Positions 49,894-55,846 of a stretch of 64,000 nucleotides of DNA are shown here, piece after piece. Positions within the stretch are counted from its first letter, which is position 1; every line of letters begins with the position of its first letter. The notes below the pieces were generated by a model. It was given only the letters and a program-made list of their open reading frames with translations. It ran no database searches and was not told where the DNA came from. Both the position numbers and the translations under genes were made by a program. The stretch comes from Patescibacteria group bacterium (GTDB lineage: Bacteria; Patescibacteriota; Minisyncoccia; Phycocordibacterales; JACOZG01): positions 81,321-145,320 of the forward strand of contig JBBTQW010000002.1 in the NCBI GenBank assembly GCA_038065495.1, in the 5' to 3' direction.

Positions 49894-50949
49894 CTATTTT
49901 GGATTCGAGAAGAGACCAGACTTTTTATCTTCTTTAAAGAATTTAGGATTCTTGAGGTTAACTAAGATAGTATTATCTTTGACATAACGCTCTTTCTTCA
50001 CAGCCGCCATCACTTGAGCTTTCGTCATCGCGCCATTTTTGTCGAGAATTTGCTTAATCACGTCGCGAACAATACCCGGCGTGTAGCCCCAATCGCCAAG
50101 CGCATATAATCCCCGCCCAACGAGCACGAATCTCGGATCTTTAATTAATTCATTGTGACTAGTCGCGGCATTAGTTTTGCGACCAAAGGTGGCCGTAATC
50201 TCTTTGGCGACTTCGGTAAAGTGCATTGGAGAACCCTTGCGACGCATGACGAGGAAAGCGTAATCTTTGATCCCTCTTACGCGCACATTTGGCGACTTGG
50301 CCAGGCCCCACTCGCCCACCGGACTCAAACCAATCTCTTTGGAGAGCTTGAGCCAGTTCTTGACCTTCTGCCGAGCCATCTCTGGCGAGACGCGTTTATC
50401 CAAACCACTCATAAAGTGCTCCACAATTTTATCTTCAGAAACTAATTCGTTAGTATCGAGAACTTGGCAGAGATTGCGTAGTGACTGATGCACGCCTTCG
50501 GCGAGGCTCGCATCCACCGTCCAACGATGATGGAAATAATCATCTTCTTTTAGTTTCGCAAAAGCGTCGCCGAGCACAAGCAAGAAGTGCACATTATTCT
50601 GGACCACCTGATCTTTAGAAATATGATCAAGAAACTCCTGCTCGTGCACCAGGCCGCCGTAATCTTCCATCACACCCTTGAGCTGGGCAAAGATTGACTG
50701 AGCAGCTGTATTGGCCTCAGACTTCTTGATCTGCGCAATCGTGGCATTCTCAATCTGCCGCACGCGCTCGCGGGTGATGCCATAGATCTGGCCCACCGCC
50801 TCCAGTGTCATCGTCTCTTTCGTCGCCAAGCCATAACGACGCTTAACTACGTCACGTGGCCGCGCCCCAAGGCTGGCCAAAAGCTCTTTTACCACCTCAA
50901 CTGGCTTGAAGGCCATCACCTCTTTTGTTTCTTTGCTGTTGTTATTCAT
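49894..50949 (-). CDS. sigma-70 region-4-like HTH domain protein fused to an unknown ~280-aa C-terminal domain
   Basis: TLEAVGQIYGITRERVRQIENATIAQIKK is a canonical sigma70 region 4.2 HTH; regions 2 and 3 are not detectable. Confidence 0.55.
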   Translation of the reverse strand: MNNNSKETKEVMAFKPVEVVKELLASLGARPRDVVKRRYGLATKETMTLEAVGQIYGITRERVRQIENATIAQIKKSEANTAAQSIFAQLKGVMEDYGGLVHEQEFLDHISKDQVVQNNVHFLLVLGDAFAKLKEDDYFHHRWTVDASLAEGVHQSLRNLCQVLDTNELVSEDKIVEHFMSGLDKRVSPEMARQKVKNWLKLSKEIGLSPVGEWGLAKSPNVRVRGIKDYAFLVMRRKGSPMHFTEVAKEITATFGRKTNAATSHNELIKDPRFVLVGRGLYALGDWGYTPGIVRDVIKQILDKNGAMTKAQVMAAVKKERYVKDNTILVNLKNPKFFKEDKKSGLFSNPK

Positions 50950-53900
50950 GTTTTTATATTATCATAGATTACAAAATTAAGCAAACGTCCTGGGATATAA
51001 ACTACCTTTTTTACCGTTTTATTGTCAAGCCACTTCTGCACTTTAGGGCTCTGTAGAGCCATATTCTTGGCTATTTCTTCTGTTGCTTCTTGCCCGCCAC
51101 TCAACACGATTTTGTCACGAATTATACCATTGACCTGAATCATAATATTTTGCTCACGTGTTGTAGTTTTTTCTCCAGATTCACTCAGTTCTGGCCACTT
51201 CTCTTGATGAATCGAGGTGTTATGTCCCAACTTTTGCCACAATTCTTCTGCGATGTGCGGCGCAAAGGGTGCGAGAAGCTTAAGAAAAACTTCATAATCT
51301 GTTTTACTCACGCCTTCTTTCTCAAAAGTGTTCAACAAAATCATCAAGCCAGAAATAGCCGTGTTAAATTTGAGACTTTCAATATCTGATGTTATTTTCT
51401 GCACCGAATCAGCTAAATTTTCTGCAGTTTTTTCTGACAGATTATCACTCAATTTCCAGACTCTCTCCAAGAATCTTCTTGGCCCAATTATACTTTCTGT
51501 ATTCCAAGCCACCGCTTGCTCAAATGGACCCATGAACATTTCGTACAATCTCAGCGTATCAGCGCCATAAAGTCCCACAATTTTATCGGGATTAATGATG
51601 GTCTCCGGCTTTGACTTACTCATCTTCACTCCACCTTCAGCGAGAATTAAGCCGTGACTCGTACGCTTCTGATACGGTTCAGAATTTGGCACTAATTTGA
51701 GATCAAATAAAAATTTATGCCAGAATCTAGAATAGAGCAAGTGCAGAGTCGTGTGCTCCATGCCACCGTTGTACCAATCCACGCCGCCAAGACTTGTTCC
51801 AGTTTTGCCTAGCCAATATTGCAATTTTTCTTCACTCGCAAATTCTTGAGCATTTTCTGGATCGCAGTAACGCAGATAATACCAGCTTGAACCCGCCCAG
51901 TTCGGCATCGTGTCAGTTTCTCGCCGCGCTTCGCCGCCACATTTCGGACATTTCACATTCACCCACTCACTCACGCTCGCGAGTGGCGATTCGCCGTCAT
52001 CACGGGGTTGATATTCTTTGACTTCCGGCAAAATCACTGGCAAATCACTTTCTGGCACAGGTTGCCAATCACATTTGCTGCAAAAAATCATCGGAATCGG
52101 CTCACCCCAATAGCGCTGTCGCGAAAAAATCCAATCGCGCAGTTTGTAAGTCGTTTTCGCCGTGCCAAATTTCGCGATTATTTTTTCCCGCGCCTCAACA
52201 GAATCTAAGCCGGAGAATTCGCTGGAATTTATCATTACACCTTCGCTAGCCCAAGCATGTTCGGGTTTAAAGAACCGGTCGAGCCACAGCTCGTATTCTG
52301 AACATTTGATATTTTTGTCTTTCGCCAGTTCGTCCCAAGTTAGCCAAACGACTTCATGAATCTGTTTCTCCTCTTCCGACAACTCTTGCTGTTCTTCGTT
52401 CTCTAACTCAAAAACCAGAGCGTGAAAAACCGCTTTTCGGTTCTCGTTCTTGTGATTAGCAAAGAAATGCGACTCGACTGGACCACCTAAAGTTTTCACA
52501 TACTTCACATTTTTATAGCCGGTTTCTTCGGTAATTTCTCTTTTTGCTGCTTCCACCATATCTTCGTCACCCTCGATCCCACCAGTGATAAATGTCGTCC
52601 AGGGAAATTTTTTCCACTTCAAACACAAAACTTTCTGATTTTTGGGATTAATAATTATCGCCTGAATGGCATTTCTCGCTACCGTTTTCACGCCTTCGCG
52701 CGGCGGATCGTGGGTGTCGATCATTTTGGGCGTCACCACTTCTCTAATCGGTAAATTATGTTTCTGCGCAAAAGCAAAATCCCGCTCATCATGGGCCGGC
52801 ACGCCCATCAGTGCGCCGGTGCCCACATCAGACATTACATATTCTGCTTCCCACACTGGAATCTCCTCCCCCGTGGCCGGATTAGTCACATACTGGCCAG
52901 TAAATTTATCGGTTTTGCCAGCAATGGCCAGATAAGTCGCGCCGAAAATCGTTTCTGGCCGAGTGGTGAAGACTTTGATCACCCCACCCGCACCCTCCCC
53001 CAAGGGGAGGGCTAAGTTTATTTGCTCCAAAACTTTTTTAATGTTATTTAAAACCTCTTCGTTGCTGAAACGAATAAGTTTATAGCCGAGTTGTGCCAAA
53101 TATTTTGTTCTTTCTTCGTCAGATTCCTTTTGATAATCATGAACATCCCCGTCAACTTCTACTACCAACATTTTTTCTAGACAAACAAAATCAACAATAA
53201 ATTTTCCAATAATATGTTGGCGGCGAAAGTGGCAACCTAGTTTATTGTCTCTTAATTCTTGCCACAATTTCTCTTCAGCTTCAGTAGGATTCTGACGCAT
53301 ACCCACCGCTTTTTCTTGTAAAGCGCGGTAGGCGACTGGATCAGCAGTTTGATAGCCAAATTCGCCCCACCCATTCCCTCCCCCAAGGGGAGGGTTCTTT
53401 CTCTCTTCCCCCTCTCCTTTGGGGAGGGGGTCGGGGGTGGGGCTGAATGGAAACTCAATCTCCGCTCCCTCACTTCTCCCAATCCAATTTCTCTGCTGGA
53501 TTTTGATTTTTTCTAAATAGTCTACCGTGTCCAGATCTTTATCCAATCTGTCCGCATACTTCGTAATCGCCAGCATCCATTGCTCTTTCTCTCGTTGTTC
53601 CACTTCCGTACCACAACGCTCACACTTACCATCAACCACTTCTTCATTCGCCAAACCAATTTTATCTTTCGGACACCAGTTAATTAGCGTTTTCTTCTTA
53701 TACGCCAAGCCGTGCTGATAGAACTGCAGAAAGAGCCATTGCGTCCATTTGTAATATTCCGGATCAGTGGTGTTGATCTCGCGTGACCAATCAAATGAGA
53801 AGCCAAGCGCTTTGAGCTGTTTACGAAAGTTATCCGTATTTTCTTGCGTCACCAGTGCCGGCGCTTTGCCCGTTTTGATTGCGTAATTCTCTGTTGGTAG

Positions 53901-54161
53901 ACCGAAAGCGTCCCAGCCCATCGGATAGAGCACGTTCTGACCCATCATCCTCCGCTTTCTCGCCAAGATATCCAGCGCCGTATAACTCCGGATGTGACCG
54001 ACATGCAAGCCATCACCAGACGGAAACGGAAACTCCACCAAACAATAAAACTTATTTTTTTCTCCCGCTTCGCTTTTTTCTTGCGCAGAATAAATACCAG
54101 ACTTCTCCCATTCCGTCTGCCATTTCTGCTCTATTTGATTGTGATCGTAAGCTTCAGCCAC
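50946..54161 (-). CDS. leuS: leucyl-tRNA synthetase carrying an in-frame DUF559 endonuclease-fold insertion (1071 aa)
   Basis: HIGH-type motif (HVGHIRSY), CP1 editing motif TTRPETIFGATY, KMSKS and the anticodon-binding domain are all present. About 160 extra residues lie between NWIGRSEGAEIEF and VFTTRPET. Confidence 0.9.
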   Translation of the reverse strand: MAEAYDHNQIEQKWQTEWEKSGIYSAQEKSEAGEKNKFYCLVEFPFPSGDGLHVGHIRSYTALDILARKRRMMGQNVLYPMGWDAFGLPTENYAIKTGKAPALVTQENTDNFRKQLKALGFSFDWSREINTTDPEYYKWTQWLFLQFYQHGLAYKKKTLINWCPKDKIGLANEEVVDGKCERCGTEVEQREKEQWMLAITKYADRLDKDLDTVDYLEKIKIQQRNWIGRSEGAEIEFPFSPTPDPLPKGEGEERKNPPLGGGNGWGEFGYQTADPVAYRALQEKAVGMRQNPTEAEEKLWQELRDNKLGCHFRRQHIIGKFIVDFVCLEKMLVVEVDGDVHDYQKESDEERTKYLAQLGYKLIRFSNEEVLNNIKKVLEQINLALPLGEGAGGVIKVFTTRPETIFGATYLAIAGKTDKFTGQYVTNPATGEEIPVWEAEYVMSDVGTGALMGVPAHDERDFAFAQKHNLPIREVVTPKMIDTHDPPREGVKTVARNAIQAIIINPKNQKVLCLKWKKFPWTTFITGGIEGDEDMVEAAKREITEETGYKNVKYVKTLGGPVESHFFANHKNENRKAVFHALVFELENEEQQELSEEEKQIHEVVWLTWDELAKDKNIKCSEYELWLDRFFKPEHAWASEGVMINSSEFSGLDSVEAREKIIAKFGTAKTTYKLRDWIFSRQRYWGEPIPMIFCSKCDWQPVPESDLPVILPEVKEYQPRDDGESPLASVSEWVNVKCPKCGGEARRETDTMPNWAGSSWYYLRYCDPENAQEFASEEKLQYWLGKTGTSLGGVDWYNGGMEHTTLHLLYSRFWHKFLFDLKLVPNSEPYQKRTSHGLILAEGGVKMSKSKPETIINPDKIVGLYGADTLRLYEMFMGPFEQAVAWNTESIIGPRRFLERVWKLSDNLSEKTAENLADSVQKITSDIESLKFNTAISGLMILLNTFEKEGVSKTDYEVFLKLLAPFAPHIAEELWQKLGHNTSIHQEKWPELSESGEKTTTREQNIMIQVNGIIRDKIVLSGGQEATEEIAKNMALQSPKVQKWLDNKTVKKVVYIPGRLLNFVIYDNIKT
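52993..53011. repeat. 19-bp near-palindrome ccctcccccaaggggaggg (copy 1), flanking the DUF559 insertion
   Basis: Identical 19-mer at 53376..53394; both copies preceded by ccccaccc. On the coding strand it encodes PLP(K/L)GEG. Confidence 0.8.
53376..53394. repeat. 19-bp near-palindrome ccctcccccaaggggaggg (copy 2)
   Basis: Direct copy of 52993..53011. Because the unit is near-palindromic, the pair also acts as terminal inverted repeats. Confidence 0.8.
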
Positions 54162-54785: not shown

Positions 54786-54815
54786 TTGACAGAATTGGCA
54801 CAGTTTGCTAAGAAT
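54786..54815 (+). promoter_or_regulatory. promoter TTGACA-N17-TAAGAAT upstream of alpha-CTD-like gene 1
   Basis: The 20-mer tttgctaagaatgtaagtgg is repeated (19/20) at 55528 upstream of gene 2. Confidence 0.5.
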
Positions 54816-54911
54816 GTAAGTGGTCAAGGTCTTCGAAATTACAGATTGCAACGCGTGTTGTGATCACCAAAATTGGTTAGAGGAACAAAACAGAAAGGTA
54901 CAGGGTAAAAC

Positions 54912-55448
54912 ATGTCCATGGGAATCTACTCCGATGTGACGGCGAAATACGAAACAACGAATCCAGCCACAATACCGCCACTTGAACTCACCTCGAAAGA
55001 CACCGTGTTTCTAAGTGAGATAGCGGGTAATTGTGAGCCCATCAACGAACACTCGGTGAGGATTCTCGTTCTTGTTGGACGTCGAGTCAGGAAAGAACAC
55101 GAGAGGTTGACTCTCCTTTCGGATCAAAGAAAAAAGTCTCACGAAGCAGAATTGGTTGCATTGAGAGAAACACACGAGGGTAGATTAGAATTGTTGAAGG
55201 TTCAACACGCAGATGAGGTTGGGAATCTCAAAAGGCAGCTATTCAACTCTCACAAGTCCATCTTCGAGATTGAAATCCAATTCACGGCTTCACAAAAACG
55301 CAAGCTGCAGAGAGCTGGCCTCGCTCGTCTCTATGACTTCACCCAGAAAACATGGGACGAAATCAAGCAACTGCTTGGCACGAGAAAGGCTGACCTAATC
55401 GGCCAAGTACTTATCCTTCGTGGCCTTCAGTTCAAGAAATGCCGGTAA
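54912..55448 (+). CDS. protein with a C-terminal RNA polymerase alpha-subunit CTD-like HhH domain (178 aa)
   Basis: C-terminus SQKRKLQRAGLARLYDFTQKTWDEIKQLLGTRKADLIGQVLILRGLQF aligns with the alpha-CTD pattern (L.RAG.....D..Q.T..E...L.G..K.........L...GL.F). Confidence 0.55.
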   Translation: MSMGIYSDVTAKYETTNPATIPPLELTSKDTVFLSEIAGNCEPINEHSVRILVLVGRRVRKEHERLTLLSDQRKKSHEAELVALRETHEGRLELLKVQHADEVGNLKRQLFNSHKSIFEIEIQFTASQKRKLQRAGLARLYDFTQKTWDEIKQLLGTRKADLIGQVLILRGLQFKKCR

Positions 55449-55510: not shown

Positions 55511-55540
55511 TTGACAAAGTTAGCCCAATTTGCTAAGAAT
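55511..55540 (+). promoter_or_regulatory. promoter TTGACA-N17-TAAGAAT upstream of alpha-CTD-like gene 2 (duplicate of 54786..54815)
   Basis: Same hexamers and the same downstream GTAGGTGG motif as copy 1. Confidence 0.5.
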
Positions 55541-55582
55541 GTAGGTGGCAATAGTGCCTTTTGACAGAAAGTAGGTAGACAC

Positions 55583-55846
55583 ATGAAATCTGGGTCCTCA
55601 CTGCAATCGTTATTCATGGTAAAGTGTCTGGTTGACGAACTAATTCTCGACCGACCAATTACTGAATTGGGATTATACCAAAGAGCAGAAAACATTCTGA
55701 GATCAGTCCATATCGACACCATCAGAAAGCTCACCCAAAGCTCTGAACGTGTGTTTCTCTCCTACCGTGGGGCAGGAACAACCTCACTGAAAAGTATCAA
55801 GCGTGAGCTAAACAAACTGGGTCTTTCGTTGCAACAAGAAACCTAA
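55583..55846 (+). CDS. standalone RNA polymerase alpha-CTD-like HhH domain protein (87 aa)
   Basis: ITELGLYQRAENILRSVHIDTIRKLTQSSERVFLSYRGAGTTSLKSIKRELNKLGLSL matches the alpha-CTD consensus (EL.L..RA.N.L....I.T...L....E......G..SL..IK..L...GLSL). Confidence 0.6.
   Translation: MKSGSSLQSLFMVKCLVDELILDRPITELGLYQRAENILRSVHIDTIRKLTQSSERVFLSYRGAGTTSLKSIKRELNKLGLSLQQET

Follow-up and report, generated by a model that had tools for sequence, protein, structure and literature searches.

How does the gene of an indispensable enzyme come to hold a whole nuclease domain in its own reading frame, and what could have carried the domain there? The question is raised by the leucyl-tRNA synthetase gene (leuS, protein LeuS) of a Patescibacteria group bacterium, located in a stretch of 64,000 nucleotides (assembly GCA_038065495.1, contig JBBTQW010000002.1, positions 81,321 to 145,320) that we call the window. 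A preliminary description, made from the sequence alone, had proposed that a DUF559 element bracketed by repeats, either MITE-like (resembling miniature inverted-repeat transposable elements) or of the homing type, had entered leuS in frame. Our analysis bears this out, by the patchy presence of the element among orthologues, a strong match to the hidden Markov model (HMM) of the domain, and repeats that mark its ends both here and in its relatives. Specifically, the insertion is probably (we would give this reading about 60%) a cassette in which a selfish DUF559 nuclease gene lies within palindromic terminal inverted repeats built of C-runs and G-runs, is translated with its host and spreads by nuclease-triggered recombination. 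Comparison of sequences places the same kind of cassette in frame in many housekeeping enzymes of several phyla, apparently without splicing.

The insertion in leuS and its palindromic units

The LeuS of the window has the motifs HVGH (amino acids (aa) 53-56) and KMSKS (aa 846-850) and, at the editing site, TTRPET and GTGALMGVPAHDERD. Pfam recognizes in it a class I synthetase core with domains for LeuS editing and anticodon binding, together with two foreign domains, DUF559 and NUDIX. About 155 extra residues stand between the strand NWIGRSEGAEIEF and VFTTRPET, and the loop from NWIGRS to TTRPET measures 168 aa versus 13-19 aa in most homologues; in P0204, the nearest homologue with an empty site, it reads WIGRSDGALIKFDDIEIFTTRPET. 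The host frame is preserved across both junctions, and the figure of some 160 additional in-frame residues given by the preliminary description was a good one. The coordinates of all parts are collected in Table 1.

Table 1. Positions of leuS, of the parts of its DUF559 insertion and of its second inserted domain in the window.
Feature	Position	Strand	Remarks
Leucyl-tRNA synthetase (LeuS), host gene	50946..54161	minus	Single unbroken open reading frame (ORF), 1071 aa, GTG start
Entire in-frame insertion	52977..53450 (LeuS aa 238-395)	minus	In the loop from the EGAEIEF strand (aa 231-237) to IKVFTTRPET (aa 396-404)
Terminal unit A, upstream end on coding strand, CCCCACCCCCGACCCCCTCCCCAAAGGAGAGGGGG	53405..53442	minus	Translated PTPDPLPKGEGE; inverted partner of unit B
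Extra internal B-type unit, coding strand CCCTCCCCTTGGGGGAGGGAATGGGTGGGG	53362..53394	minus	Other frame, read as NPPLGGGNGWGE; absent from L003
DUF559 nuclease module (24-aa leader and Pfam core)	53010..53357	minus	Vsr-fold, PD-(D/E)XK
Terminal unit B, downstream end, coding strand CCCTCCCCTTGGGGGAGGGTGCGGGTGGGG	52979..53011	minus	Translated ALPLGEGAGGVI; canonical G-quadruplex motif
NUDIX hydrolase domain, second insertion in LeuS	52317-52673 (aa 497-615)	minus	Pfam E=5e-15; intact Nudix box GGIEGDEDMVEAAKREITEETGY

The inserted domain had been taken for a full DUF559, and the Pfam search (PF04480) leaves little to add: LeuS aa 281-385 match profile positions 3-108 of 109 with E=6.6e-35 and 119.7 bits against a cut-off of 20.6. 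The 24-aa leader in front of this core has the conserved pattern GYQTADPxxYxxL...MRxNPT. All invariant columns of the family are matched, the candidate catalytic residues D324, E335, D337 and H341 as well as E296, W300, R313 and Q315, and the D/E/D/H set is kept in 117 of 121 related DUF559 cores. DUF559 is the sole Pfam domain inside the element, where no DDE, HUH or serine/tyrosine transposase family was found. A structural counterpart in the PDB is 3HRL, an endonuclease-like protein of Neisseria gonorrhoeae (E=7.2e-20 over 89 residues).

How the insert would sit in the structure had been asked from the outset. In an AlphaFold2 model built from 50 LeuS sequences (mean predicted local distance difference test (pLDDT) 84.6), DUF559 (aa 275-382) folds apart as a separate alpha/beta domain that leaves the LeuS fold undisturbed and both flanking strands of the core-to-CP1 ribbon intact. 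The repeat-encoded segments at each side (aa 241-271 and 384-391) have pLDDT values below 50 and are predicted to be disordered Pro/Gly-rich linkers. As modelled, the insertion site is a permissive surface loop, on the beta-ribbon between the catalytic core and the CP1 editing domain.

The preliminary description also reported two identical 19-mers, CCCTCCCCCAAGGGGAGGG, each preceded by CCCCACCC, and in this it was exact: the window contains them at 52993-53011 and 53376-53394 and has no further copy, with 0.02 matches expected by chance. The full repeat is longer than that, however, covering 33 nucleotides (nt) in the two B units of Table 1, which are 88% identical, and there is a third copy, inverted and more degenerate, that constitutes unit A. 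The two identical 19-mers are translated in different frames (LPLGEG versus PPLGGG), so that what is repeated is DNA sequence and not protein sequence. The PLP(K/L)GEG linkers noticed at both junctions do exist, but their source is the third, inverted copy and terminal unit B, not both of the 19-mers.

Reading along the coding strand, the order is unit A, a 13-nt spacer, the extra B unit, the conserved 24-aa leader, the DUF559 core and unit B. Units A and B are inverse complements, with an 8-bp stem inside each. In the closest relative (protein P0122, locus L003), which is syntenic and comes from another well of the Hainich groundwater site, the simple form A-DUF559-B is found without the extra B unit; the direct 19-mer repeat of the window thus reflects an added B unit. 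Where direct and terminal inverted repeats had both been claimed for the element, only the inverted ends A and B belong to its canonical form. The gene order YchF ... LeuS - sigma70-like - DUF8128 is common to the window, L003 and a further locus, L005. Together, unit A and the extra B unit make an 84-nt hairpin-of-hairpins, with an RNA fold of A+B at -54.1 kcal/mol. The G+C content of the DUF559 module is 36.6%, versus 44.7% in LeuS.

Each unit holds a G-quadruplex motif, G4-A-G3-N3-G3-T-G4, at 52982-53001 and 53365-53384 (the B units, both on the minus strand) and at 53421-53442, and the units account for three of the five such loci in the 64 kb. When quadruplex energies are included, the isolated B unit is more stable as a quadruplex (-23.7 kcal/mol) than as a hairpin (-18.3 kcal/mol). 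As a universal feature of the element the G-quadruplex was rejected, the full motif being present in merely 12-18% of related loci. What the related loci do have is a consistent polarity on the coding strand, with C-runs upstream and G-runs downstream.

In none of their six frames do the units contain a stop codon, and their readings are rich in Pro, Gly, Ser, Leu, Glu and Arg (PSPKGR, LPQGE, PPLGGG, LPLGEG and others); the peptides obtained from the six frames match those at the borders of the element in homologues. Since the cassette contains no stop codon and the host frame is kept, it is translated as part of LeuS, and from its sequence the insert is expected to remain in the mature protein. 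Two ways of removing it were considered and rejected. As to an intron, an Rfam search at E<=10 over 52700-53700 gave just hairpin-like miRNA noise, the ORF is continuous, and the part of the insertion outside DUF559 amounts to merely ~135 + 36 nt, where a group I or group II intron was looked for. As to an intein, the Pfam scan found no Hint or intein family, and in 29 LeuS inserts the residues at the junctions are variable and include no HN.

Cassettes and single units among relatives

Our comparison covers the 120 LeuS nearest to that of the window, which are all of Patescibacteria type; the sampling of relatives is biased to top hits. The loop from EGAEIEF to IKVFTTRP is usually 13-19 aa long in this set, and a lineage-specific insertion, as had been anticipated, fits with the loop being mostly empty. 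DUF559 with the same border peptides appears at exactly this loop in about 30 of the 120, the others having loops of 13-38 aa or other domains. The carriers are scattered across the host tree, filled and empty LeuS pairs reach 79-84% host identity, and the nearest empty-site relative of the window LeuS (P0204) is 72% identical to it with synteny conserved. Over 406 pairs, insert identity and host identity are practically uncorrelated (Pearson r=0.11, Spearman -0.05). Judged by this comparison, the insert is not a feature of the LeuS lineage.

A codon-level comparison of the window with L003 shows how differently the parts have diverged, expressed as p-distances at synonymous (pS) and non-synonymous (pN) sites. 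In the host gene pS and pN were 0.44 and 0.04 for the N-terminal part and 0.52 and 0.13 for the C-terminal part. The DUF559 interior reached a saturated pS of 0.87 with a pN of 0.19, versus a pS of 0 in units A and B over ~20 synonymous sites. Unit B is 100% identical over 36 nt, and unit A is identical too, without synonymous change. The nucleotide sequence of the repeats is kept constant, and the DUF559 residues are under purifying selection. The excess of pS in DUF559 over the host gene indicates that the nuclease gene is older than its host gene or has been exchanged independently of it, with purifying selection retained. As DNA, the repeats are conserved far beyond the nuclease gene.

The same loop holds other domains in other Patescibacteria LeuS (P0137, P0142, P0145, P0160, P0220-P0226, P0129, P0191, P0227), sometimes together with DUF559 and extra repeat units. 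Among them are NUDIX (180 aa), alpha/beta-hydrolase (~197 aa; PF06821/PF12695) and the PF10706 nucleotidyltransferase. To judge from these alignments, the LeuS core-to-CP1 loop is a hot spot for domain insertion. HAD-family domains are listed for P0227 as well, whose loop here is only 25 aa long. In P0136 and P0148 an alpha/beta-hydrolase stands between two A units, but its interpretation as cargo is unsupported, homologous hydrolases being found at the same site without units (P0137, P0221). Two further proteins indicate that the units evidently multiply on their own: P0143 has a repeat unit in frame within DUF559 itself (LRKNSFS-PAIPGGEG-ENSKGFHFRRQH), and P0230 has three tandem B units downstream of DUF559.

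The closest proteins to the insert include stand-alone DUF559 proteins as well as DUF559 domains that lie within unrelated enzymes and have the same border peptides. A metagenome scan gave more than 577 confirmed DUF559 loci, and in 50 of the best 80 metagenomic relatives the ORF continues for 80 aa or more to each side of the domain. Pfam domains split by DUF559 include those of MetH (at two sites), IleS, MetG, RecG, DegT, an IcmF-like mutase, an epimerase-cupin and Tgt, and IspF has an N-terminal DUF559 fusion. By their motifs we recognized also a Lhr helicase, a restriction-modification enzyme and the LeuS of Bacteroidota, where DUF559 is at the same loop as in the window. An exhaustive search collected 23,890 DUF559 cluster representatives at E<=1e-3, and in 54 of the best 150 the domain was internal. 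Its relatives are rare in phage (3 of 50,697 records) and in plasmids (40 of 72,556 records), for which reason either of these was rejected as a vehicle.

All 29 DUF559 inserts of Patescibacteria LeuS form one DUF559 clade, within which Tgt-embedded and stand-alone elements nest, and the repeats are near-identical among the LeuS and Tgt elements of Patescibacteria. The DUF559 domains at the same site of Bacteroidota LeuS, and likewise those of IleS, come from several unrelated clades. By this pattern, the LeuS loop, and equivalent loops of many housekeeping enzymes, have been colonized repeatedly by different DUF559 lineages. A second recurrent LeuS site was seen in Bacteroidota just before TMPG(W/Y/F)AGSSWY; it is occupied by solo units in L059 and L064 and by a complete cassette with DUF559 in L203, and in L064 units are located at three places of one LeuS.

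Flanking inverted repeats were found in 44 of 79 DUF559 loci, in each case stronger than in 30 of 30 shuffles and spanning 25-45 nt, with a common design of a C-run outer arm and a hairpin of C-arm, loop and G-arm. To that extent the tie between repeat and insertion that had been assumed from the 19-mer is confirmed, but the unit is not peculiar to this insertion: in other genomes it is dispersed and mostly without DUF559, which goes partway towards the objection of a common motif that the preliminary description itself had raised. A search with an exact 30-nt pattern (24 specified bases) in species-representative genomes matched at least 120 stretches. The matches listed come from Bacteroidota, Ignavibacteria, Deinococcota, Alpha- and Betaproteobacteria and Dormibacterota, often at several loci per genome. 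Among them, units paired in inverted orientation (A...B doublets) and spaced by 30-55 nt occur in L046, L068, L075, L110, L117, L121 and L125. The units are rarer in ORFs than random positions are, and still 20-35% of them are in frame inside long ORFs. A solo unit was found at the same LeuS loop in L059, and in L028 and L051 solo units stand just before the equivalent TTRPET motif of ValS. Five tandem units make a 60-nt tandem repeat array in L081, which was rejected as a CRISPR because its 'spacers' are themselves repeated. Among the matches listed, the unit, existing alone and as inverted doublets, is a dispersed MITE-like repeat.

How the cassette may have spread

In the reading that we favour, of a selfish nuclease gene moving with its palindromic ends, the host-embedded nuclease would nick or cut DNA at or beside a palindromic unit, or at a cruciform extruded from it. 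The break would then be repaired by recombination with a cassette-bearing copy, the shared units and/or the host flanks providing the homology, and the repair would copy or swap the cassette in a homing-like way. The only survivors would be in-frame insertions in tolerant loops of indispensable genes, and survival of this kind would explain both the preserved frame and the recurrent sites.

Several points weigh against this reading. Neither further palindromic units nor, by tblastn, a second DUF559 were found in the 64-kb window, and units at a single locus give no evidence of an element multiplying in this genome. A clean pair of filled and empty alleles differing solely by the cassette was sought and not found: the closest empty sites, in P0204 (72%) and in P0200 (84% to P0173), have unrelated loop sequences, that of P0200 being of AGCT-type low complexity and not an evident scar. 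The ends of eight aligned elements had no consistent target-site duplication, and in 35 of 80 DUF559 loci there was no perfect hairpin within 200 nt. The units adjoined DUF559 in only 9 of 139 cases (6.5%) among the exact matches listed, so that they may spread by another agent and be merely favoured landing or recombination sites. Besides, the near-universal retention of catalytic residues exceeds what a purely parasitic, fixed homing gene would lead one to expect and leaves room for a benefit to the host. The trees are neighbour-joining trees without support values, and the mechanism of mobility is one that we infer from sequence comparison.

The strongest competitor is classical site-specific homing, in which a DUF559 lineage would cut the empty LeuS site (codons around EIEF...VFTTRPET) and be copied in by repair, the repeats being passenger linkers. 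It would account well for the same site being filled in dozens of LeuS with patchy presence, for the 29 Patescibacteria inserts being a single clade and for the disagreement of host and insert phylogenies. Moreover, Vsr-fold enzymes of the EDxHD family are proven homing endonucleases (PMC3239194, PMC2677866), and DUF559 has been classified in the same PD-(D/E)XK clade (PMC3424549). Against it stand the Tgt-embedded and stand-alone elements that lie inside the LeuS clade and have the same repeats, the single-site inserts of Bacteroidota LeuS and IleS that come from several unrelated DUF559 clades, and the highly variable sequence of the empty-site loop. The repeats are conserved at synonymous sites, as passenger linkers would not be, and in place of an added DNA-binding domain like the NUMOD/helix-turn-helix (HTH) region of I-Bth0305I there is just the 24-aa leader. 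We consider this explanation unlikely, although it deserves more credit than those that follow.

Alternatively, the element could be a miniature transposon, cut-and-paste or copy-out, with DUF559 as the transposase recognizing the terminal inverted repeats and the solo units and doublets as its non-autonomous MITE derivatives. The 25-45 nt inverted repeats at 44 of the 79 loci are what it predicts, the A-B doublets with 30-55 nt between units resemble internally deleted elements, the units are dispersed and multi-copy in several genomes, and the element is found at many different loci. To our knowledge strand transfer by a lone PD-(D/E)XK nuclease has no precedent, and in Tn7 the related nuclease TnsA needs TnsB; both facts count against a DUF559 transposase. 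So do the failure to find a consistent target-site duplication in the eight aligned elements, the small share of listed units that DUF559 adjoins, and the recurrence of identical host loops, which fits selection or homing better than random transposition. A transposon of this type seems improbable.

Domestication has a still poorer case. Here LeuS would have recruited DUF559 as an accessory domain for a cellular role (e.g., translation-linked binding or cleavage of nucleic acid), followed by vertical inheritance and losses. Purifying selection on the domain (pN 0.19 versus pS 0.87) and the almost invariable retention of its catalytic residues would be expected, and Patescibacteria LeuS tolerates NUDIX, alpha/beta-hydrolase and nucleotidyltransferase domains at the DUF559 loop and at a second site. 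Yet the same module is carried by enzymes functionally unlinked to LeuS (MetH, IspF, DegT, Tgt, RecG), host and insert show no co-divergence, the nearest relatives are without the insert, and the interior has diverged further than the host gene, between repeats that are identical. We regard a recruited domain as very improbable. Finally, a chimeric assembly or an artefact of annotation in a metagenome-assembled genome (MAG), for which one could invoke the metagenomic origin and the capacity of G/C-rich palindromes to seed misassembly, can be set aside almost completely, given the identical 1071-aa LeuS in at least two independent records on separately assembled contigs (NCBI MAG, 335 kb; ENA Hainich groundwater, 191 kb), the syntenic relative from another well with the same architecture, the ~30 LeuS from many studies with the same site, and the frame preserved across both junctions.

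Known systems and neighbouring features

The selfish cassette that we propose has partial parallels in several described systems. Vsr, DUF559 and I-Bth0305I have been placed in one PD-(D/E)XK clade (PMC3424549) that already includes homing enzymes (PMC3239194). The Vsr-like (EDxHD) homing endonucleases such as I-Bth0305I share with our element the nuclease fold, the selfish character and a sporadic presence in conserved housekeeping genes, and I-Bth0305I prefers pseudo-palindromic targets. They are located in group I introns or split-intein loci, or are free-standing, and have an N-terminal NUMOD/HTH region (PMC3239194; PMC2677866 for all of these traits). In contrast, the DUF559 of LeuS is in no intron or intein, being an internal domain of the host protein flanked by inverted repeats. 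There is also no detectable sequence similarity between DUF559 and the EDxHD family, the PDB search having matched 3HRL and not 3R3P. Closer in lifestyle are the ShiLan-type in-frame elements of phage methylases (PMC11855218), in which the frame is kept, splicing domains are lacking, evolution is homing-like and the insert is predicted to loop out; they are one recent precedent for in-frame unspliced homing inserts. In these elements, which come from actinophages, the insert encodes an HNH nuclease out of frame, unlike the present cassette, which is chromosomal, has DUF559 in the host frame, palindromic terminal repeats and a very broad range of host genes.

The repetitive extragenic palindromes (REPs) and their doublets (REPINs), with the associated transposases (RAYTs), offer another likeness (PMC3733652): short G/C-rich palindromes, single or as inverted doublets, and a unit-flanked gene suspected to be the mobilizer. 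However, RAYTs are HUH/Y1 transposases of the IS200/IS605 type and the present gene is a PD-(D/E)XK DUF559; REPs are extragenic, whereas 20-35% of our units are in frame inside ORFs among the matches listed; and the units do not have the GTAG/CGTC tags of REP families. Inteins are also in-frame selfish insertions at conserved sites of essential enzymes, often with a homing endonuclease and in similar hosts (helicases, synthetases, cofactor enzymes). They have a Hint domain and conserved Cys/Ser/Thr and His-Asn residues at the junctions, and the present insert has none of these and variable junctions. The Rickettsia palindromic elements (RPEs) are in-frame palindromic repeats of roughly 100-150 bp, A/T-rich, not known outside Rickettsia and without a known associated nuclease gene. 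Our units differ from them in being ~30 nt long, of C-run/G-run composition, present in several phyla and arranged to bracket a nuclease ORF. RPEs and other in-frame bacterial MITEs have been reviewed elsewhere (PMC10969869, PMC5896051).

The element lacks the defining traits of an intein, an intron, a RAYT and the standard transposase families, and we have therefore placed it with the homing/MITE kind and in none of those families. In the full-text literature, a body that leaves out most subscription journals, we came across no account of DUF559 together with such repeats or in an in-frame lifestyle, and the only treatment of DUF559 found was its superfamily classification in PMC3424549. The novelty of the cassette is thus probable. 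A wider proposal is quite possible, if short of probable: that the units and the DUF559 cassettes they bracket are an undescribed class of mobile element of several phyla living inside coding sequence, a nuclease-driven analogue of REP/RAYT, with stop-free repeats that become Pro/Gly linkers, a nuclease carried unspliced in essential enzymes, and units that seed linkers and possibly domain insertions.

If the reading as a selfish cassette is right, selfish nucleases would have a third way, besides introns and inteins, of living in essential genes, that is, in frame and tolerated on disordered linkers. DUF559, a very large family whose role is unknown, would gain a function and a natural substrate that can be tested, and there would be an explanation for the odd Pro/Gly-rich 'PxPxLPxGEG' segments by which many annotated proteins of Bacteroidota, Patescibacteria and other phyla are interrupted. 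The reading may also indicate how, in general, additional domains and linkers get into conserved enzymes. Inserts of this kind mark structurally permissive loops, which is useful for protein engineering, and they inflate or split gene calls. In the public NCBI record of the same gene (P0121) the protein is annotated as an 837-aa 'DUF559 domain-containing protein' whose start is inside the insertion, so that the insert misleads both the naming of the gene and the choice of its start site.

The second foreign domain of the window LeuS, NUDIX, is inserted towards the C terminus of the CP1 editing domain and has no flanking repeats. It is present in most of the 120 nearest Patescibacteria LeuS; at this site the closest relative, P0122, has an unrelated segment of ~80 aa and P0204 has nothing. 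Outside leuS, a promoter-like pair was found on the plus strand at 54786-54818 and 55511-55543 (TTGACA, 17 nt, TAAGAAT), with the common sequence TTTGCTAAGAATGTA and a chance expectation of 0. The two copies are upstream of plus-strand ORFs at 54912-55448 (178 aa, no family) and 55583-55846 (87 aa), the latter resembling the C-terminal domain of the RNA polymerase alpha subunit.

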